From: Eledone cirrhosa
Lineage: Eukaryota
NCBI GenBank assembly: GCA_964016885.1
Contig: OZ024741.1
Span: 131,812,001 to 131,876,000 of the forward strand
Direction: 5' to 3'
DNA length: 64,000 nt
The translations under genes and the position numbers were made by a program. The notes beneath the pieces were generated by a model, which saw nothing but the letters and a program-made list of their open reading frames with translations, was not told where the DNA came from and searched no databases. This document shows positions 3,966 through 58,212 of this stretch, one piece after another. Position 1 is the first letter of the stretch; each line of letters starts with the position of its first letter.

Positions 3966-4129
3966 CTGGATTTGCGATCGATAGATAATATTTGCAATTG
4001 GAAAGACCAATAGAAACATTGTAACTTCGGTTCGGTTTGACGAATTCCACTCCACTCTTTAGCAATGAGGTCTGGGATCTTGTCGATCGACTGTCGATAT
4101 ATATATATATATTTATAGGAAAATGTTCA

Positions 4130-4320
4130 AGACCCGACAACAGATCTCAAGCCGTTTCGACGGCTATTTCTGGACTACTACCCTAAGTATTGAGTACTGT
4201 GGTGCGTTATGGTCCATCTGGTTCCTTACATATATATATATATATAGATATATAGATATATAACGAAGGAAGTGTTGTAAGGAACCAGATGGACCATAAC
4301 GTATCACAGTACTCAATACT
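4130..4320. mobile_element. Short fold-back remnant of the PLE family at 24980-27359
   Basis: CTCAAGCCGTTTCGACGGCTA (3' half of HHR, minus strand) and GTAAGGAACCAGATGGACCATAACG match 24980-25120; 4185-4230 and 4275-4320 are inverted around (TA)n. Confidence 0.75.
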
Positions 4321-10305: not shown

Positions 10306-10306
<1 letters not shown>

Positions 10307-10866
10307 TAGGGCGGGTAAAATTCCCGAGATCCATGTACGAATTCTCTCCAGCGGTCTCTGTCCCTCATCATCGCTGCCATCTCATGCGTCTCCAAGAGAC
10401 CAGTGTCTGTCCTTAGGGCATCAACATATGTCAACCTCGGTCTTCCTCTTCCAGTGTGTCCATGCAGGGACTCCCACAGGAGCACTGAGTGCAGTGTTAA
10501 CTCTGGATGTCGGTGAGCATGTCCAGCTAACCTCAGTCTCCTCTGTGCTACTCTCGAGCTGACCTTTGGGATGCTCCCGTACAGTTCTGAGTTCTTCATT
10601 CTCAATATATACTGATTAATGTTCAGAGCAATCCTCAGCATTCTCGTGTAGCACCCATCCACCATCTGAATGAGTTTCTTGGTCAGTGTCCAAATCTCAG
10701 ACCCGTCCAGCAGCACATACTTCACTACAGCAACGAAGGGACGGATCTTCAGGTCTTTACGAAAGTCTGACTTCCACACCGATCTCAAGCTGTGGCATAC
10801 CACGCAGGATTTTCTCTTCCTCTCGACCACATCATCTTCCGTATTCCAAATCTTTGCTCCCAAATA
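10306..10866 (-). mobile_element. 5'-truncated RTE-like LINE 3' end
   Basis: YLG...GSEIWTLTKK...DGCYTRMLR...RRLRLAGH...GRGRPRLTYVD...DRDRWR C-terminal motifs; stop codon runs directly into (CA)n. Confidence 0.9.
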
Positions 10867-12202
10867 CAGGAATATATATATACATACATATTCATACACC
10901 CATATGCATATATACATACATAGTGGAAAGTCTACTCGTGTTCGAGTACGACCATTCGTTGGATCGAAAGAAATGAGATACAGAAACTTCCAAAAACATG
11001 TTATTGATGTATGCATATATGTGTGTGTCTGTATTATATATATATATATAAAGAGAGGGAGAGAGAGTGAGAAAGGAAGAGACAGATTTCCCTAATCATT
11101 TACGAATTGTCACTCCAAAACTGCTTTCATTGCTTCAATTATTGGTCAATAATAATACAATTTTCTTTTGAAAATATCCTTGGTAAATTGGGTAATGGAG
11201 GCAAAGATAAGTAAGCAATTTTGGTATGTCTTATGCAGGCTGTTTGCTCTGTAATGTCGATGCCTTCCTCAGTTCAGTAGGTTTATAGGTTTGATTGGCA
11301 TGAATGAAATTAAGAAAGAAAAAAGGTGGTTAATTACACAGCTTAAAGAGGCAACTAAGATATATCGATCCCACTATAATAAACATGATTAAGAGTTTTT
11401 TTCTGTATTTGATTGTTTTTGTGTCAAATACATAGATATAGATTTATGTATAAATCAGTCTCTTTTTTCTCTTTCTCTGTCCCCTTCTCCTCCCCTTCTC
11501 TCTCTCTCTCACTATATATATATATATGTGTGTGTGTATGTGTGTGTGTGTGTATACATGTGTGCGCCTTTCTCTGTGTATGTGTATACATTTATCTGTG
11601 TCTAATAATCAATCGATTTACTTATCTATGGCAATATGTTTGTTTTTAACTTTATCTGCATATATATATATATATGTGTGTGTGTGTTTGTGTTTGTGTG
11701 TATGTATATATATATATATATATATATATAAAATCAATTTAAACGGGTGACTTGGGGAGGTATCTCCTACCATTTACAATTAAGAAAAAAAAAACAAGAT
11801 AGACAGAGATAAAAAAAGCATTAAAAAAATAATGGAAAACGTGGAAAACTGTAAAGTAACTAAAAGTTTCTCTTGTTGATCTTTTCCAAGCTTCCGTGTA
11901 GCAAAATATATTTTTATTGTTGGTAGATTTTTGACAATATATCTTGGTAGTTTTTTCTTTTACGATCAGCTTCAAGATGTCCTCTCTCTCAGACTTATAG
12001 CTTCTACACTGGAACAAATAATGACAAAGTATTTATAGGAAATCTCCACAAGAACATAGAGGCGACTCTCTGTGGCCTGTTCGTGATAAAATGTAGTTCA
12101 AAGGTATATGGGCCCGTACGAAACCAGCATGACTTTTTTTTCTATTGAAAATTTACCTAGAGTTAGAAGCTTAAACACGCGAATTTTATTGACTACGAAA
12201 AA

Positions 12203-15181: not shown

Positions 15182-15930
15182 CAAGTGGATCCCCAACAGT
15201 ACAAAATTATGAGTTGGTACACGGGTGGATGAACTGAGTGAACGTCCATCTACTCCAACAATGGATTAAATAGCCTCTCCAACCCGTAATTGGCCAAGTG
15301 TGTTGAGTAATGTTACACCCCTAAAATAACTAGAAAGTAACCAACTTGCTTGCTTTAAAAACTTGATTCAGTGGAATGATACGTGATGCCCCCCAACAGC
15401 CCCGGCGGACAGAATGGAGAAGGCGTTTCCCCGGAGGACGGCAAGGGAGACACGCTGGGAAAGCCACTCCAGCTCACGGGGCTCACACCTGCGACTGGCC
15501 AGCACAGCGCCTATGGTGGTGAGTAGGGAGGTAGCCCTAGAGTCGAGGACACCAGAAGTCTCCACTGCCAAGGGTACGACCGCAAATCTGTTGGAGAGCG
15601 ACCGGTATTTGAGAAGTTTGCCCTCCTCAGCCCGACCTGCAGCAGAACCTGGGTTAGTCGCAGACTGCACCAAGTTGTGGCTGCGGAAAGTGTCAGTGCA
15701 AGTGGCATCCCAGACGAGGGGTTTGCCACCGCGGAATGGGAAGATGGTCATGCCATCTGGCCTTTTGCCGTCCCCTCGGTCCAGTCCTACCGGCTCGAGC
15801 TGGGAAGGGAAGCCTGCAGCGTCCAACCCATGCTTTATGATCTCGTTGAGGGCAGCATGGCGTGGAAGAAAGCGGTAGAGGTCAATCAGGGAGGGTTCCT
15901 CTAACAGGAGTGAGAAGGCTCTGGATTGGA
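15182..15930 (-). mobile_element. CRE-like non-LTR retrotransposon 3' fragment (restriction-like endonuclease)
   Basis: RHAALNEII...EPVGLDRGDGKRPDG...WDATCTD...AEEGKLLKY...PLAVETSG...QRVSLAVLRGNA (PD-(D/E)xK RLE signature); embedded in (GAT)n low-complexity DNA; boundaries approximate. Confidence 0.85.
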
Positions 15931-16440
15931 TTGGATTATGATGATGGTGATGATGATGGTGATGGTGGTGGTGATAGTGTTCGTCGTGGTGATAACGAGG
16001 ATAATGATGATGATAATTATCATGTTGATGATGATGATGATATACATTTTGATACTTAATTATTTATTTTTAAAAAAAGTAAACTTTAGTTGTTTAGAAA
16101 AATAGAAATATTCATTGAATAGTCTACTCTTTGACACTAACTGCATAAAAAAGTAATTTGTATATCTGTCTATATACCAAGGTATTGACTTATGGTTTCA
16201 TTTTTATTAGGTCCCTATGAGGTCCCCATCTCCGATGTCCACGGACGTGGAGTGTGCCACATTACTTTTTCTCCTTCTCCCTTTTCCCCGTTTTTTCTCT
16301 TTTTCCTTTTTCTTTTCTCATTATTTCTCTTTATTTATTTTTTTTTTTTGTCACTGTTATAGACTGTATTCTTAAAAATAAATAACATTGTTTAATTGTC
16401 TATATGAAATAATTAATGGAATATCTTTTTCTATTTCCAG

Positions 16441-17290: not shown

Positions 17291-17501
17291 GACGAAAGTG
17301 GATGTACGTTTTTTGAAGCTCCGTGAGTAAGCAATTTTTTGAGGATTAATTGTGGAGAATTGTTTATTTTTTTGTACCGCTGAAGCATTATAAGACATTC
17401 ATTTGTATCCTGTGAAGGAATAACTCATAATATTTGGGCCTTTTGGCCCAAATATTTGAACTTTATTTTGGAAAAATAATAATTTTTTTTCTCAAAAAAA
17501 C

Positions 17502-19406
17502 ATGGCGGAGCCACGCCCCCTAGAGGCGGGTCTGCTGTCGTGCAACGGCGACTTGAGCGTTGAGAGGAGAGGTGGGGCGAGGAGCGCCACCAGCACGAGT
17601 GTGAGCAGCGACAGTGCCAGCACCAACGGGCCGAGCGGCGCGGAAGGTGGTAACAGCGACAACACCAACACCAACAAGCCGAACAGCGCAGAAGGTGGTA
17701 ATAGCGAGAGCACCAACAAAACGAACAGCACAGAGAGTAATAGTAGCGACAGCAGCAGCACCAACAAGGCCAACAGCACAGAGGGTAACCACGACACAGG
17801 GGAGAACAACAACAGCAATAGCAGCAGCAACACCAACAAGAACAACAACAGTGACAACACCAACAAGAACATCTTCGCTGCTGTGGCAGCGGCTAAAAGG
17901 AGACCATGCTACAGCATCGACTTAACCAACAGAGAGGAAAAGTTGGCCCAGGCCTGGAAAATCATAAATCAAGAGCAGACCTGGGCAAACTTAACTGTCC
18001 CGGCAGAAGCCATTGAGGCAGTGGAAAAAAGAACGGTGCATTTCAGATGCATCTCAGTAGAGACAAAGAGGGCAGCGATAATCGCCCAAGCTGATATAGA
18101 AGCCGCACTGAAATACATCAGAGAGGACACAGACTTCATAGAGAGGGGCAGGCAATACGGCACCGTTTCGGTACTGTTCAAGTCTGAAGCCCTCGCTGTG
18201 AAGCATTCAATGACCCCTTGCAAAACCAGCAAGGTCATAATGTACCCCTCCCACATGGGAAAACGAATAGCACGTGTGCGCATTCCCAGGAATCCACCAG
18301 GACTTGATATGTGGTGGCTCCTGGGTTGCGTAATCGTGGAAGGAACGGATACAGTCCCGGTAGAGGCAACGAGAACTGCCAGGGACGACTGGTCCGGGGT
18401 TGATCTGGAGATACTGCTCCAAATCAGACCCGAAAACGTAAAAGCAATCCCGGACCACATCCGCCTCCAAAACGGGAGGGTGTTGCATATAATGACTGAG
18501 GGCAAAAGGCCGCATTGTTTCCTTTGTGGGGAAACGACACACTTGCGAGCCTTCTGCCCTCAACTGCCGAAAAGCGCAAGGGGTCGAAAGATTCCACTGC
18601 TGGCGACGCCGGGACAAGGACCACCAGCAACACCGTCAACAATGGAACCACCAAAATTGCACACCCAGGGGGGAAACGAGGAAAGCTCTCCCATTCCCCC
18701 TCCCCCCCAAAATACACACACGAACAAGAACATAAACACTCACTCACACACAAACACGCTCACAGACCCCTCATCCTCCAGCAGTGAAGATGAGGGAAAA
18801 CCAAAGTCCCCCAAAATACAAAAAACAAAACACAAAAAAAAAAGAAATCCACAAAGCACAAACACCCCCACAAAAAAAAATACACACACCACCCACACAA
18901 ACATTTTCCCCACAGCATCACCAACACAACCACCAAAATCCCCCAAACGCAAACAAGCTAAACAGACACAAGAACAAATAGACACACAAACATCAGAAAC
19001 TACAGACACCCCACCCACAACAAACGCAGACACAATAGAAACAACACTAACAAAGCTATCACCACCACAATCACACGAACAAATAAAACCCGAGCAACAA
19101 AACATTAAAAACTTCGTGCTTGCCAGAAGGGCCAACAAGGAATTGATGGCCCATGTAGCACGAAGCACAAACATCGAAAAAGAGGGGGAAACATTTGAAG
19201 CGAGCACATTTCGCGTACCAGATAATTTGCTTCTGATGCGAATGTCGCTCGCTTCATACAAAGAAATTCGAAAGAGCTTTCCTCGGGATGTGGGAACCCC
19301 GAACGTAAAACCCACTTCAAGACTATTAAAGGGGTTCCCAAAAGAAACCCCACAAACCATGGAGGTCGAACCACCCGACCTTCACAAGACCCCGGAAGGT
19401 AAGTAA
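17502..19406 (+). CDS. LINE ORF1 protein (gag-like, zinc knuckle)
   Basis: 634-aa open frame; CFLCGETTHLRAFC knuckle; low-complexity N-terminus and linker; ends 29 nt upstream of ORF2. Confidence 0.9.
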   Translation: MAEPRPLEAGLLSCNGDLSVERRGGARSATSTSVSSDSASTNGPSGAEGGNSDNTNTNKPNSAEGGNSESTNKTNSTESNSSDSSSTNKANSTEGNHDTGENNNSNSSSNTNKNNNSDNTNKNIFAAVAAAKRRPCYSIDLTNREEKLAQAWKIINQEQTWANLTVPAEAIEAVEKRTVHFRCISVETKRAAIIAQADIEAALKYIREDTDFIERGRQYGTVSVLFKSEALAVKHSMTPCKTSKVIMYPSHMGKRIARVRIPRNPPGLDMWWLLGCVIVEGTDTVPVEATRTARDDWSGVDLEILLQIRPENVKAIPDHIRLQNGRVLHIMTEGKRPHCFLCGETTHLRAFCPQLPKSARGRKIPLLATPGQGPPATPSTMEPPKLHTQGGNEESSPIPPPPQNTHTNKNINTHSHTNTLTDPSSSSSEDEGKPKSPKIQKTKHKKKRNPQSTNTPTKKNTHTTHTNIFPTASPTQPPKSPKRKQAKQTQEQIDTQTSETTDTPPTTNADTIETTLTKLSPPQSHEQIKPEQQNIKNFVLARRANKELMAHVARSTNIEKEGETFEASTFRVPDNLLLMRMSLASYKEIRKSFPRDVGTPNVKPTSRLLKGFPKETPQTMEVEPPDLHKTPEGK

Positions 19407-19435
19407 ACCTTTCCTCTCCCATTCATCCTGCCAGC

Positions 19436-22400
19436 ATGGCCATAAGAGTAGGAAGTTTAAATGTTCGAGGCCTGGGGTCGCCCTGGAAGCAAGGTCACTT
19501 GCTCAACGACCTCAGGTCACTAGGAATGGATGTAATTGCCATCAGCGAGACCAGAATTTCCGACACACGCACACTGGCGCCGATTTTCGACGATTATCAG
19601 ATCTTTGCATCTGTTAGTCGGCCGGGAATGGGAGGTGGAGTGGCTGTGCTGTTTAGGAAATGTCTGGATCTCGAGGTAAGGTCAATCTTCCGGGATCCTG
19701 ACGGAAAGTTGGTGGTCCTGGACGTGAGCAATAGCGAAGGTGGTGCCTTTAGACTGGTGGCCGTCTACGCCCCTACTGGGGCCGGTCGGCCGGACTTCTT
19801 TAGGTGCCTGGAAAACTTTCTGCTTACGTCTCGCCCTTTACTGTTAATAGGGGATTGGAATGGCATCTTAGAAGCACGCTGGGATTGTGTGGGAGTATCT
19901 GATAGGAGCGGGGGGTGCAAAAGCCTCAAGTACCTGATCAGCCAGTTTCAACTGTCTGACAGGTACCGACTAGATTTCCCTAATGCGCCAGTATGGACCT
20001 GGACCAATCGCATAGGGTCATCTAGATCGTACATAGATAGGATTTTCATTAGGAAAAGAGATAGAAATAGTGTAGGATGTCCACATTTTAAAACGGTTGC
20101 CTATTCAGATCACAAGCTTGTGATCTGTATGGTCGACCTAGATAAGACACGTAGGTTAGGACCTAGCTACTGGAAGCTAAACATGTCGTTTCCGGCACGT
20201 AAAGCTTACAGGGACCGGGTCAACAACTTAGTTAAGCAAAAGTTGACAGGGGGGGTTGTCAACAACAGGTGGTGGGGGGCTCTCAAAAGAGAGATTAGAG
20301 CAACCTCGATAGGATTTAGCAAAGAAGTAGCAATAGAGAAAAATAGAAAGGAGGAGGGGCTGATAGCTAAGTTAGACGAGGCTATTTGTAGTGGCATTGC
20401 AACAGACGTGCTAGCGGCGAGAATGGCACTAGACCATTTCTTCAATGCGAAACACGAAGGTTGCATTGTCAGAGCTAAGGCGCGTGCTCTGAGGAACGAG
20501 GGAACCAAAGCTGCCCGATGGGCTCGCTTTGCAGAGACGCAGCGTGGAAATAAAGCCACAATTCGGTCTTTGACGGATCGAGATGGACACGAACTGAGCG
20601 ATTCCAAGCAGATGTGTGAGGCCTTTCGCCAGCACTTTGCTCGATTGTTCGGGAGGATGGGTGAGTCGGAGACGGCGGCGGACTTCAGTCCCTACCTCGA
20701 CGGCTTGCCACGCCTCTCGACGGCCGACGCTGAGCGCTGCGAAGAGCCGATAACATCAGTCGAAATTCAGGACGCCCTTGTCGGCTGCTCGTGTCGCAAG
20801 TCACCCGGTTTGGATGGTCTGCCCTACGAGCTTTACGTAAATATGCCAGACTTGTTCTCCGATCTCCTCGAAGCGCTCTACTGCAAATGGCAGCAGAACG
20901 GGAGCATTCCCTGTTCTGTGAGCCGTGGCGTAGTGACGCTGATAAGGAAAGACGAGAACAAGAGGGACACACTAGATAATTTCAGGCCCATAACCCTGCT
21001 CAACACAGAGTTTAAGATTTTGGCCAAGGTGTTAGCGAAAAGGTTGGCGCTTGTCGTCAAAGATTTGGTTGGGGAGGCGCAAACTTGCGCAATCCCGACC
21101 AGGTCCATACACGACAACCTCCACCTCATGCGATACATCATAGAGAGGGTTGGGTGCAAACCTGGCTTCGGTGGGGCTCTGATCAATTTAGATCAATCGA
21201 AAGCATTCGATAGGGTCGACCATCGGTACTTGGAGGCTGTCCTCGAGGCGGCTGGCTTCGGCCCCGTCTTCAGAAGCTGGATCGCTGCAATGTACAGCGG
21301 CATCTGCTCGGTGGTCAAAGTTAATGGCCACCTCTCGGAACCGTTTCCGATCTCTCGATCGGTTCGTCAAGGGTGCCCTCTCTCCTCACTTCTGTACGTA
21401 TTGACTCTTGAGCCTCTACTGCGGAAGCTGGAGTTGTTGCAGGGCATCCCGCTCGAACCGGGACGTAGAAAGGCTGCGTCCGCTTATGCGGACGACATCA
21501 CCGTGATGGTGTCGGACACCTCGGAAATCGAGGTGATCCGCACCCATTTTGAGGAATATGAAAGGTTGACGGGAGCAAAACTTAACCCGGAAAAGTCGGT
21601 GGGCTTGCAGCTCGGCACCTGGAAAGGCAAGTCCATGCCGTCCAACAGCGTCGTTGGGCGCTGGACAGACGGACCGGTAAAGTTGCTCGGGGTTTGGTTC
21701 GGACCAGACCTCCAGGTGGATAAGAATTGGGACGAGGTGACGAGCAGGATAGCCAACCTCACCCAGAAATGGGCTGAGAGAAAGCTATCACTGAAAGGGC
21801 GGGCGGAGGTGGCGAACGCGTACATCGCGTCCGTCATCTACTACCGCCTGACCGTCGTGCCTTGCCCCCGTCCACGCCTCGCCAATTTGGAACGGCTCCT
21901 TTTCAAATTTTTGTGGAGGGGACGGGTCCCGTTGGTGAGGCGGTCCATCTGCTGCCAGCACCCTCTTCGTGGAGGGCTGGGCATGCCGTGGCTAATGATG
22001 CGCAGACATGCGCTGAGGCTGCGACATCTCCAGATATTTTGCCTAAACGGTGAACAGGTGTGGTCGCCGTTTGTTAGACGGGCCTTTCCGCAGCTCATCT
22101 CTTTGACTGAGCTGCAGTCCTGGGTCAAGAAGAGACCGAGACTGGGCGACTGGCATCTGGAATGTTGCCAGGCGCTCACTTCACTCTGCAAGGTGGGCAA
22201 TGCGGCCAGTGGAACTTCCACTCAAGATTTCTATAGAGGATTAGTGGAGGGCAAGTACGATGACGTACTAGGAGAGGCTCTAGGCGTCAACGAAGTAGAA
22301 CTGACCAGTATGTTCCGGAGGACTTTCGAGCCGGGGACGATGGATAACTTCCAGAAATCCCTCGCTTGGCAGTGCTACCGGGGGGGCGCTGCCGGTTCGG

Positions 22401-22856
22401 GATAAACTCTACAGGCACGGAAGTGCTGTCAGACGAACCTGCCCGAGATGCGCGCAGAGCGACGAAACCGTTCTGCACGCACTCGTCCAGTGTCCGTGCA
22501 TTGCTGACTTGTGGGGTCATGTCGAACAGCTATTGTCGCGTGTAGAACGGATCCGGCTATCGTCCGAGTCCATAGTGAAGATTGACCCGCCGCCTTCTTT
22601 TGGTCAGGAAGGGCAGGCAATTTTCCTCTGCCTGGTGGCAGTAGCGAAAGAGGTTGCATGGTGGACCAGGTTGAAAGGACTGAAGACAGACACTTTTCTC
22701 TTCGGCCAATCCCTCATCAACTTCTTCAAGTTTCACTTGGAAAGGAAGGTGAGGGTGGAGAGAGAAGTGCTGCCCCCCAGTACATTTACTGAAAGGTGGG
22801 TGAATGTGGCGAGAATGGCCCGCGTGAGTGGGCCTACTCTGATCATGCGCCTGTAG
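19436..22856 (+). CDS. LINE ORF2: AP endonuclease + reverse transcriptase + C-terminal CCHC, with one +1 frameshift near 22380-22386
   Basis: SLNVRGL, GDWN, IDR, SDH (APE); FRPITLLN, QGCPLS, YADD (RT); removing one G from the G7 run gives YRGALPVRDKL...CPRCAQSDETVLHALVQC and reads through to TAG at 22856 (1139 aa). Confidence 0.93.
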
Positions 22857-24805: not shown

Positions 24806-24904
<99 letters not shown>

Positions 24905-24905
24905 A

Positions 24906-24981
<76 letters not shown>

Positions 24982-25072
24982 CGAAGGAAATGTGGTAAGG
25001 AACCAGGTGGACCATAACGCACCAAAGTACTCAATACTTGAGGTAGTAGAGTGGGTAATAGGAACCAGTAAG

Positions 25073-25166
25073 ACCCCGACAGCTGAGCTCAAGCCGTTTC
25101 GACGGCTAATTCTGGACTAAATGAACATTTATCCTGGTATTTAAATAGCCGATCTTCTCAAGGGGT
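25073..25166 (-). ncRNA. Type I hammerhead ribozyme, U3-A8 core variant
   Basis: Reverse complement of 27250-27343. Confidence 0.8.
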
Positions 25167-25521
25167 AATTCCATATATGGTCAAAGTGATTGTCAAAAAT
25201 CAGTAGTAATTCTGTGGTTGCAAATTAGTAGGGGAGATGGTGGCTAAACCTGCCAGTAGGAGAAAGAGGGGAGGGGGTGGAGTAGACCTAATCAAGCGTT
25301 GGTAGTGCCAGCTACAGCTGGGCATGAGGTCAAAGAAGATACAGGGGAGGGGGAGGGGGAGGAAGTCGGAACGGTAGGTAGAACAATGGGGGGTAAAAAT
25401 AGGAAAGAAAAAATACTGAGAGTGAAGAAAAGCAAATAAGTGTAAAGAAAAAATTAAATTCTACGACCTAGGTGTCAGGCTATTGTTAGGCGAGAATAAA
25501 ATAAAGAAAGAAAGAAAGAAG

Positions 25522-25552
<31 letters not shown>

Positions 25553-26268
25553 GGAAATAAGTAAAAGAACTAGGTGGGACGAATTAGGCAAGGACCCTTT
25601 TAAGAGGTATAAGTACGTAAATGATACGGTGACTGGTCAACAAAAGGGGCCAAAATACTAAAGAGACTACCACGAAATAAACAATAAAGGTTTCCATCCC
25701 GGGCCAGCAACGACCCAGTGCAGCAAAGTGAACTTGTACGACATAATAATTCTGAGTCCCGGGAAAAATATATACTAATGCTAACTCTAAAAGATCTAAA
25801 ACAAGCTACATGAAAGTTCGTACGAAATAAAGGTAGAATACGGAGAAATAAGTTCAGAATCCACCCCGCCCAGAAGAAAAGCGAAGCAAGAAATACTGAA
25901 ACGAAAAAATAAGGCATAAGTGCCACTAAGAAATATAGAGGGCACAGAGAATAGTGGGAGCGGTCGGAAAAGGGGGGCAAGTATCCGGGGTCTAAGCCAA
26001 CTGCTATAAAGGGCGGAGTCCGCCAAATCTATCAAAGACTAGGGGAGGGGGGAGTGGGGGTACTAAGGCTACATGGGGCCAAAGGGCAGCCTCGGGTGGG
26101 CGAGAAAAGACGCCGACAAAGGAGAAGAGCTGGGGTAGAAGGACAAAGGAGAGAGGGGGGAAGGAAATAAAGGATGCGATAAAAGAATACAAAGAAGATC
26201 TTACGTCTTCCTTGGCAAGCAGGGGTTACCCATTGCAAAATCGGCAACTGGGGTGTTATAGCCCTAGT

Positions 26269-26730
26269 CTACCCCCCCGGGTCATTATGGGGTTTGAGGG
26301 CGAGGTAAGTCCTACGCAATCTATGTTTACATGCAGTAACCAGTTCATCTTTCTTGTTTAGGAGTTGGTCCGTCGAAAACAGCATTTGTAAAGTTTCCTC
26401 CGAGCATAAATTGCACGGACGGCGTCCTCCCGTGTAAGGATTGGCTCTGGACAGTAATCTCCAAGTGAGATCATAGGTGATGTTGTTGTCCTTGAGGTCC
26501 CATATGTGGCCCGAAAGTGTAGTGGCGTGACGCCGGGCCGGGTTTCGGAAGGTATGTCTACGTTGGTATAGCCGGGTCTTGAAGTCACATGCGGTAAGTC
26601 CTATATAGGCTTTGTTGGAGGTATCCGTCCTCACGTTGCACTGGTAGATCACATTACGGTCTCTGCATCTATTGTCGAGTGGGCAAATAGATCTATCCGG
26701 GCAGTTACACCTCCTGGTCGGTTCTCCACT
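26269..26730 (-). pseudogene. PLE GIY-YIG endonuclease domain fragment
   Basis: CNCPDRSICPLDNRC (CxCx5Cx5C linker) then VIYQC...AYIGLT...FKTR...LSGHIWDLK...CNLCSEE...LLNKKDEL...CKH; RT absent. Confidence 0.88.
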
Positions 26731-27249
26731 GCTATTTGTTTATTTCGTGGTAGTCTCTTTAGTATTTTGGCCCCTTTTGTTGACCAGTCACCGTATCATT
26801 TACGTACTTATACCTCTTAAAAGGGTCCTTGCCTAATTCGTCCCACCTAGTTCTTTTACTTATTTCCTTATTTATTTATTTATTTATTTATTTACTTCTT
26901 TCTTTCTTTCTTTATTTTATTCTCGCCTAACAATAGCCTGACACCTAGGTCGTAGAATTTAATTTTTTCTTTACACTTATTTGCTTTTCTTCACTCTCAG
27001 TATTTTTTCTTTCCTATTTTTACCCCCCATTGTTCTACCTACCGTTCCGACTTCCTCCCCCTCCCCCTCCCCTGTATCTTCTTTGACCTCATGCCCAGCT
27101 GTAGCTGGCACTACCAACGCTTGATTGGGTCTACTCCACCCCCTCCCCTCTTTCTCCTACTGGCAGGTTTAGCCACCAACTCCCCTACTAATTTGCAACC
27201 ACAGAATTACTACTGATTTTTGACAATCACTTTGACCATATATGGAATT

Positions 27250-27343
27250 ACCCCTTGAGAAGATCGGCTATTTAAATACCAGGATAAATGTTCATTTAGT
27301 CCAGAATTAGCCGTCGAAACGGCTTGAGCTCAGCTGTCGGGGT
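27250..27343 (+). ncRNA. Type I hammerhead ribozyme, U3-A8 core variant
   Basis: ACCCC TTGAGAA GATCGGCTA...TAGCCGTC GAAAC GGCT TGAGCTC AGCT GTC GGGGT; helix I 5 bp, helix II 8 bp with one bulge, helix III 6 bp, GUC site. Confidence 0.8.
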
Positions 27344-27353
27344 CTTACTGGTT

Positions 27354-27411
<58 letters not shown>

Positions 27412-27412
27412 A

Positions 27413-27484
<72 letters not shown>

Positions 27485-27934: not shown

Positions 27935-28810
27935 GCTGCATCGAGATGCATGAATTTTGTTTTGTCAGCATTCAAGAAGAGTCCAATGGAGTGAACTGCA
28001 GCCTCCACCCTGTGACTTACTTCTTCATCTTCTTTGCAAGTATTTTCTAGGAGAGCTATGGCATCAGCGTAGGCCATTTCAGGTAGAACTTTTTCCGGGT
28101 GATGGGTGCTTTGTCGACTTTTTAGCATTATCTGTCTGGTGATGCAATGGCATTACGCAGTACATAGTCAAGGCATATCGCAAAAAGGATCGCAGTGGAT
28201 CTCCTTGGAGGTTTCCGATATCAATGAGGAGTAGGTCTATGTTTCCCTCGGATGACATCACAAGTGCTGAAGTATGCTCATATATGACTTTAATTACATT
28301 CATGATCTGATGAGGTATGCCATAAAGAAGACCTTTTAACATTTCGTTCGCTCGATCGAATCAAAAGCTTTCCTGAAATCTATGGATACAATTGCTGCCT
28401 CCTTCTTGTGATTCCGTACTTCCTCATCAATCCTTCTAAGAAGCAAGATATGTGAGGAAGTAGAGCGAAATGGCTGAAATCCAATTTCGCTGCGACGTAG
28501 ACTGTTGTCGATACTTATTCTGATCCTATTCTACATCATTCTGTTGCAAGACTTTGCTGTAATTTGCGTAAGACTGATGCTTCTATGGCTTGTGAAAATG
28601 GTAAAGACATCTTTCTTAGGAATTGTTACTATTCTTGATAGTCCTCAATGCACAGGCCTGAGCCCATCAAACGTCTCGATACAGAAGTTTCTTAGAAAGT
28701 TGCGAGCATTAAGTAGTTTCTATAGGTCTACTGTTAGGCCATCAAGCTCAGGAGCTTTGCTTGGTTTCATTGCCTTTAGTGTATTGTGCACCTCTTGTAC
28801 AGAGATGTTA
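27935..28810 (-). pseudogene. Decayed RTE-like reverse transcriptase fragment
   Basis: Frameshifted IDFRKAFDSI, YGIP, QGDPL, AYADAIALL, IGLFLNADKTKFM. Confidence 0.85.
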
Positions 28811-57598: not shown

Positions 57599-58108
57599 TC
57601 GAAATTTAACAAAGGAATATAATAGACAAAATCCATGGGGCTGAAAAGAAGTGACATAAGGGCGGCCGAACATTTAGCAGCTTCTAGCCCGGTCAGTATG
57701 TATGTATACTAGTCAGTATGTATGTATACTAGCAGTGGTACCCGGCGTTGCACGGGATAAGGTATTTTGGAACGCGGGCCGCCAACAGACCTAATCGTAG
57801 AAAAACTGCATGCGTTGACAATATGTAAAGAAAATAAACCGAATACTCTGATGGCTGGATAATCTTTAAGATTTTCCTCAATGAAGCAAGTTTGTTTTTG
57901 TGTGGGTGGGGTGTTTCCTTATTTATATGGGGATGGGTATGAACAATTGTGGCATTGTAATGGTGCTGGAAGAATTAGGCTGAGTTGAAGAATTGTCAAG
58001 GGGAAATGAAATATATATAAAATATAATCAATTCATTTTACAGATTTTTTTAACAACTTTATATGGACAACTTATTATTTTACTGACACGTCAATCATCT
58101 AAGCCACA

Positions 58109-58184
58109 CCCCTGATGAGTTATCCAGTCCCCTGCAAGTCTGTTTGTCAACTAGCTGTTGAGACGGCAAAAGCCCAGCCGTCGG
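58109..58184 (+). ncRNA. Degenerate hammerhead related to the Naiad-type family but with C3-G8 core
   Basis: CCC CTGATGA G...TAGCTGTT GAGAC GGC AAAAGCCCA GCC GTC GG. Confidence 0.45.
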
Positions 58185-58212
58185 AACCTGGGTCTTTCAA
58201 AGATATATATAT

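Follow-up and report, generated by a model that had tools for sequence, protein, structure and literature searches.

The stretch of Eledone cirrhosa DNA that we analysed, 64,000 nt in length and hereafter called the window, contains an insertion of a young Penelope-like retrotransposon (PLE) in a (TA)n repeat. The insertion consists of two arms in inverted orientation, 1,773 nt on the minus strand and 623 nt on the plus strand, both more than 99% identical to an intact unit of the family, and has the following parts:

26736 to 27358, plus strand: right arm, a 5'-truncated copy with part of the 3' UTR, the hammerhead and the short end, 99.8% identical to the intact unit
24975 to 26746, minus strand: left arm, a 5'-truncated copy with the endonuclease end, the 1.1-kb 3' UTR, the hammerhead and the long tail, 99.3% identical to the intact unit
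26272 to 26736, minus strand: last 155 codons of a Hydra-clade ORF, with the CxCX5C linker, GIY-YIG-type endonuclease, CxxC and CxH
27344 to 27358, plus strand: short 3' end of the insertion, joined to (TA)n, the putative first reverse-transcription start
24975 to 25057, minus strand: 83-nt tail past the short end, joined to (TA)n, the putative second reverse-transcription start

The (TA)n/(CA)n block to the left of the insertion (24890-24980) recurs at its right (27358-27460), possibly as a target duplication within the microsatellite. Elsewhere in the window lie a near-intact non-LTR retrotransposon (17460-22856, plus strand), in which a 648-aa zinc-knuckle ORF is followed by a 1,000-aa endonuclease-RT frame that goes on in a shifted 183-aa frame, and decayed retroelement-like fragments at 10306-11091 (minus), 15368-16063 (minus) and 27950-28800 (partly by eye).

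Intact units of the PLE are 3,531 bp long (3,528 bp in one pair), arranged in tandem, and combine a 1.1-kb 3' UTR with a single 717-aa ORF that encodes an RT followed by a C-terminal GIY-YIG-type endonuclease. The motifs RWR, DKT, YRDD, CxCX5C, VIY...YIG, CxxC and CxH stand at positions 37, 117, 348, 572, 591, 670 and 698 of the ORF, and Hydra-type motifs are common to 113-119 of 120 homologues among the matches listed. The closest database proteins are about 40% identical across the full length of the ORF; Pfam gave 0 matches, both for an ORF fragment and for the whole 717 aa. Of the marks that define the Hydra clade in Craig et al. (2021, PMC8557442), the family has the RWK-like motif, DKT, the CxCX5C linker, the terminal CxxC and CxH, a (TA)n target and a 3' hammerhead. 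By layout and motifs, with published reference proteins compared by eye only, the element is a Hydra-clade PLE. The sequence-only reading had called it Naiad-type, a label that has to be given up: the endonuclease is C-terminal with none at the N-terminus, DKT stands in place of DKA and the hammerhead is full, whereas Naiad PLEs, which resemble the present element in their (TA)n preference and inverted arms, are described as having an N-terminal endonuclease and DKA and no canonical hammerhead (PMC8557442, in part). Metagenome relatives were found at 8 loci, three of which have a full ORF and share the same C3-G8 hammerhead with a 4-bp helix III; on contigs L062, L063 and L064 the Hydra-like ORF is 36-37% identical and the shared C3-G8 hammerhead lies about 160 nt past the match.

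The hammerhead is present in both arms of the insertion, as had been proposed from the letters of the DNA, and is laid out as follows:

27250 to 27343, plus strand: type I hammerhead ribozyme with a U3-A8 core and helices I, II and III of 5, 8 and 6 bp
27255 to 27261, plus strand: core U3-U4-G5-A6-G7-A8-A9, sequence UUGAGAA, the family consensus
27250 to 27254 (5' strand) and 27339 to 27343 (3' strand), plus strand: helix I, 5 bp
27262 to 27270 and 27308 to 27315, plus strand: helix II, 8 bp with a single bulge and a 37-nt loop
27316 to 27320, plus strand: GAAAC
27336 to 27338, plus strand: GUC, with the predicted scissile bond at 27338/27339 and a smaller second peak of stub 5' ends at 27339
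25073 to 25166, minus strand: second hammerhead, all 94 nt identical to 27250-27343

In the numbering used below, window position 27250 is 1, so that the loop II A is 49 (27298), C17 is 89 (27338) and G1.1 is 90 (27339). Sequence and fold agree with type I: U4-G5-A6-N7-x-A9, G12-A13-A14, A15.1-U16.1, an NUH site and three helices are present, and the 3-8 pair, a feature of hammerheads described in PMC3884650, is by sequence a Watson-Crick U3-A8. Minimum-energy and centroid folds alike predict the three-helix structure, with pair probabilities of 0.74-0.98 in helix I, 0.61-0.76 in helix II and 0.48-0.76 in helix III, next to a rival hairpin burying GAAA at about 0.24. Compared with shuffles, the fold has no extra stability (z -0.5), and Rfam models gave 0 hammerhead matches for the 27250-27343 motif, a miss likely due to the variant core and the long loop II; the case for a hammerhead is therefore built on the core layout and on the family evidence given below. 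Counting A15.1-U16.1, helix III has 6 bp, as had been noted, and a 7-nt loop, and so exceeds the 3-4 bp and 1-3-nt loops of published Hydra hammerheads. Because PLE hammerheads of fungi and protists with a long helix III are described as cleaving as monomers, monomer cleavage is, by analogy, plausible here too; dimers are also possible, the loop of helix III being palindromic. Further hammerhead-like motifs with C3-G8 and a short helix III occur in the window at 2196 (plus), 1713 (minus), 62733 (minus), 58697 (plus), 57078 (minus), 52227 (minus) and 13509 (minus), apparently from a number of further families, PLE or related; those at 1713 and 2196 form an inverted pair.

An exact 16-mer that includes U3 and A8 has 2,237 copies in the 3.0-Gb assembly in which all genome counts were made (reversed-sequence control 0), a count that serves as the only bound on the number of intact ribozyme copies. 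The same context holds C3·A8 in 15 copies, a base other than A at position 8 in 19 and C3-G8 in none, and 40 of 40 scored copies are identical over 159 nt. U3-A8 is thus the consensus of the family and not a pair of chance mutations, and the C3-G8 consensus that would have made it so was not found. Nor is it new: the same swap was published in 2014 for Cercyon PLEs of Schistosoma mansoni, with about 1,300 hits (Cervera and de la Pena, PMC4209133), the sole report that we found. The swap by itself is therefore already known and of modest interest; together with a 6-bp helix III it is new for the Hydra clade as far as File S2 of Craig et al. goes (PMC8557442). Two other U3-A8 hammerhead-like motifs, L036:534 and L050:2172 (both plus strand), each with an inverted copy, have a helix III of 3-4 bp, belong to head-to-head insertions in (TA)n and are by eye unlike the young U3-A8 PLE; given these, the swap may have had more than one origin in the genome. 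Lunse et al. may describe comparable hammerhead variants, and there is a case for adding U3-A8 to ribozyme searches.

The 16-mer at the 3' end of the young family has 16,463 genomic matches and that of the wider group 57,942, and the majority of these roughly 58,000 related 3' ends belong to short head-to-head stub pairs. Insertions have two fixed 3' ends, about 20 and about 100 nt beyond the scissile bond, and all 30 of the 30 best-matching loci fit them (12 short, 9 tailed, of which one is 3 nt shorter, and 9 continuing in tandem; hand count). As both ends lie past the ribozyme, the long copies appear to have come from RNA that was uncut or rejoined there. The 5' ends of stubs are likewise concentrated: of 98 copies among the first 100 matches listed, 63 end at 43-59, 20 at 60-87 and 1-2 at 6-42 or its edge (1 at 11), while 9 retain the whole core, 4 (from two insertions) end exactly at G1.1 and 1 at position 91. 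Samples of three sister groups place 19, 17 and 22 of 30 ends in the same main class, and ends at G1.1 number 1 of 30 in sample E, none of 30 in D and one ambiguous case of 30 in C. We regard the two points at which genomic 5' ends pile up as likely the transcription start and the cut site of the ribozyme. Two features of the window bear on the first:

27296 to 27302, plus strand: initiator-like motif in loop II, in which A27298 is the main stub 5' end and the putative transcription start
4129 to 4320, no single strand: insertion of the stub type from a sister subfamily of greater age, in which the minus arm stops at the loop II start point

About two thirds of stub 5' ends lie near the loop II A. 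A base other than T precedes A49 in 7,042 matches; inspection of 30 confirmed 27 as true ends and assigned the other 3 to a subfamily that has C at 48. The context is pyrimidine-A-purine, as in the animal initiator consensus. Reverse transcription over a cap leaves an extra G, and one-base inserts at loop II head-to-head joins are G or C in 10 of 11 cases (hand count over 50 of 2,707 symmetric joins, among the matches listed), as against 2 of 18 at cut-site joins (hand count; Fisher p 3e-5). In the longer inserts of the same 50 joins, also counted by hand, the base before A49 is G on 15 arms, C on 7 and A on 4; G stands on both arms in 5 joins (L385, L386 and L388 are examples of the extra G), and none of the subfamilies has G at 48. 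Many arms extend 1-4 bases beyond the loop II A, and start positions are probably spread over 45-50. In an independent run of unrecorded type, summed contig depth, which is not copy number, rises about 12-fold at this point; an RNA run that contains 0.22 of the query words gave a single contig, which lies upstream of the ribozyme and does not reach it. The initiator-like motif and the extra G together suggest that the loop II A is likely a capped transcription start. Pyrimidines followed by AG also resemble a 3' splice site, and PLEs are reported to have introns near their ribozymes (PMC4209133, PMC2377424, in part), so the boundary might instead be a splice or trans-splice acceptor; we consider this highly improbable, as the AG is retained in the stubs and a constant leader or exon is absent upstream in 30 of 30 loci and in 20 more, mostly chosen for a preceding G.

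The second boundary, at 27338/27339, is smaller. G1.1 is the exact 5' end of the 3' product of a hammerhead, and matches without C89 number 610, with true ends at 22 of 30 inspected. The corresponding figures are 283 matches and 24 of 30 ends without T88 (15 of them direct or near-direct arm-to-arm joins at the G run, the other 9 not), 153 and 12 of 30 without G87, and 226 and 7 of 30 without G90. The ends thus estimated are about 450-590 at G1.1 and about 85, 61 and 53 at three neighbouring positions, for each of which the estimate is based on 30 loci, an excess of about 6-10-fold. A peak at this very position is likely a footprint of cleavage in vivo, and the earlier suggestion that the variant is probably functional gains indirect support from it, the natural mutants giving a mixed control. 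Cut-site joins make up 313 of 22,025 (1.4%) in the young U3-A8 haplotypes and 9 of 4,458 (0.20%) in mostly C3·A8 haplotypes, a 7-fold difference for which the p-value of 1e-15 is overstated by counting the two arms of an insertion separately. In an older U3-A8 haplotype they are as rare as with C3·A8 (20 of 10,453, 0.19%), and a mixed haplotype has 64 of about 17,000 (about 0.37%); since 0 of 13 tails in the latter carry the U3-A8 branch marker, the C3·A8 lineages probably form such joins at a rate above zero. The marker that splits C3·A8 from U3-A8 stubs is on 3 of 30 tailed copies only, too weak to decide. In the older U3-A8 lineage, and in some of the C3·A8 group as well, helix III is shortened by a shared U·U mismatch, which may account for the mixed outcome, an after-the-fact reading.

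Arrest of the RT or ambiguous junctions can also contribute to the peak, as the cut site lies next to a G run and helix I. On another reading the start site would be real and the cut-site peak an artefact of junctions at the G run, with cleavage unproven or else protein-dependent and rare. About 3% of ends fall in the peak, whose rate tracks lineage more cleanly than core pairing, and a shorter end that gained an untemplated G would be scored as G1.1 by mistake. Most joins at G1.1, however, either lack an insert or have one of A/T, and ends one base deeper in the G run are rare (the 53 above), which makes an artefact of this kind improbable in our view.

A decayed relic at the far end of the window belongs to an older related family:

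58105 to 58190, plus strand: decayed relic in which the core is the canonical C3-G8 and helix III is as long as in the young family

It does retain CTGATGA (58112-58118), as had been reported, and its family, in which C3-G8 predominates, is about 74% identical to the young one across 100 nt that span the 3' half and tail. A 100% identical copy of 58085-58205 lies 16 kb downstream (131886191), suggesting recent local duplication. With U4, G5, A6 and A9 kept fixed, a relaxed pattern found 5,744 further cores; 100 of these, the matches listed, comprise 65 U3-A8, 33 C3·A8, 2 U3·G8 and no C3-G8 (hand count). N7, the one free position of the hammerhead core, is as variable in U3-A8 sisters as expected for a sole free position (G 18, A 16, U 14 and C 13 of 61 parsed). 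Median divergence within subfamilies, grouped by rules of our own (n 5-28, partly from variant-targeted searches), is 8.2% for U3·G8, 5.4% for U3-A8, 4.5% and 2.2% for C3·A8, 2.2% for a further U3-A8 group and 0.7% for the young family. A core-masked tree gives the same ladder, its outgroup root being unreliable. The root obtained with the relic family was discarded, as it fell at the youngest end, against the order of ages; the upstream flank of the relic is not clearly homologous and its branch is long.

With U3·G8, U3-A8 and C3·A8 subfamilies placed in an age series, the 3-8 pair changed stepwise and was broken for a long stretch without halting amplification; the path may be read from the sequences as C-G to U·G to U-A to C·A and to U-A again. 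The proposal that a double change arose within this lineage is too simple, as U3·G8, U3-A8 and C3·A8 each define sister subfamilies. The C3·A8 subfamilies (L075, L081, L092, L093, L344, L358 and others) amplified despite a probably weak ribozyme, and efficient cleavage therefore seems dispensable. It could be argued further that the ribozyme is near inert in vivo and that the two kinds of stub arise where the RT stalls on structured RNA, once it has passed helix I in one case and at a small loop II hairpin in the other. The C3·A8 lineages, a third of the cores listed and so of an order of thousands of copies, still yield some cut-site joins, the older U3-A8 lineage has equally few, and catalytic mutants of another PLE inserted in vitro undiminished (PMC11167929, in part). 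That the stops are sharp to a single base, that the extra G is confined to the loop II point, that the stronger helices II and III halt far fewer copies and that the youngest lineages are back to U3-A8 nevertheless make an inert ribozyme unlikely.

We therefore favour, with a probability of roughly 0.6, a reading in which the 3'-terminal U3-A8 hammerhead of this young Hydra-clade PLE likely cuts read-through RNA after GUC, and a likely start in loop II makes capped RNAs without the 5' half of the ribozyme. Transcription from the loop II A would yield a capped RNA with a 231-nt leader, and an mRNA so begun would be unable to cleave itself at the 5' end. Within tandem arrays the RNA would read into the whole ribozyme of the next unit and be cut there some of the time, which would create the 3' end of the mRNA and a downstream RNA beginning at G1.1. 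Reverse transcription would start at two internal sites near the 5' end of such RNA, on both DNA strands, and would usually run off the template at once to leave stubs, those of the loop II class by run-off at the cap and those of the G1.1 class by run-off at the cut; long copies would require a read-through template left uncut, a circle or a strand jump. What is observed is the layout of the sequence and where the copies end; that the RNA is capped and cleaved, and how long copies form, is conjecture built on this. For other PLEs there are published precedents both of an RT that initiates internally and of promoters inside the element (PMC11167929, PMC2377424).

A bolder version would treat the ribozyme region as a mini-LTR in which all parts act jointly: the loop II initiator would set a capped 5' end and self-cleavage the 3' end, the 41 nt between start and cut would be present at both RNA ends like a retroviral R region, stubs would be strong-stop cDNAs whose insertion involved no jump, and strand transfer through the 41-nt terminal repeat would give rise to long and tandem copies. 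The joint action of all these parts is a tentative idea that we doubt. If true, it would explain the purpose of PLE hammerheads and the formation of pseudo-LTRs and tandems, and would be recorded in tens of thousands of genomic copies.

Under the favoured reading, genomic insertions appear to mark, to the single base, both a start within the ribozyme and ends at its scissile bond. In vivo evidence that PLE hammerheads cleave is rare, and this would be an instance of it. The stub-end test requires an assembly alone and is applicable to any abundant PLE family, and the present family supplies a series of natural alleles of the 3-8 pair and an intact young element for biochemistry. Titles and the starts of abstracts, together with passages of the papers cited here, mention neither transcription that begins within a PLE hammerhead nor stubs that stop where it cleaves. 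What looks new is that genomic copies bear traces of a likely start within the ribozyme and of likely cleavage, and that sister lineages form a natural series of 3-8 pairs.

With published Hydra-clade PLEs (Craig et al. 2021, PMC8557442, in part) the element shares the order of RT and C-terminal GIY-YIG-type endonuclease, the RW[KR], DKT, CxCX5C, CxxC and CxH motifs, (TA)n targets, a sense 3' hammerhead, and tandem and inverted insertions with a tail. It differs in its 3.5-kb unit with a 1.1-kb 3' UTR (mostly <3 kb in the published ones), in its 83-nt tail (30-40), in its longer helix III and in U3-A8, C3-G8 standing in every Hydra-clade row of File S2. The Cercyon hammerheads of S. mansoni share the compensated U3-A8 pair and a long helix II, and are described in PMC4209133 as minimal, heterogeneous and mostly solitary, whereas here there are a full helix III, an intact young host element and intermediate pair states in sister lineages. 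Poseidon of Anolis (Frangieh et al. 2024, PMC11167929) is alike in having two internal RT starts downstream of the hammerhead that set the tail, extension of both DNA strands and uncut RNA as the main template; that study found no reads ending at the cut site, a result that counts against cleavage as favoured here, and its text, in the parts covered, describes neither transcription from within the ribozyme nor stubs that stop at the cleavage site. Penelope of Drosophila virilis (Schostak et al. 2008, PMC2377424, in part) has a TATA-less internal promoter with an initiator in the pseudo-LTR, much as proposed here, together with an intron that runs from 46 bp past the start and ends at helix I (PMC4209133, in part), so that its transcript retains the ribozyme, unlike that of the present family, in which transcription would begin inside it.
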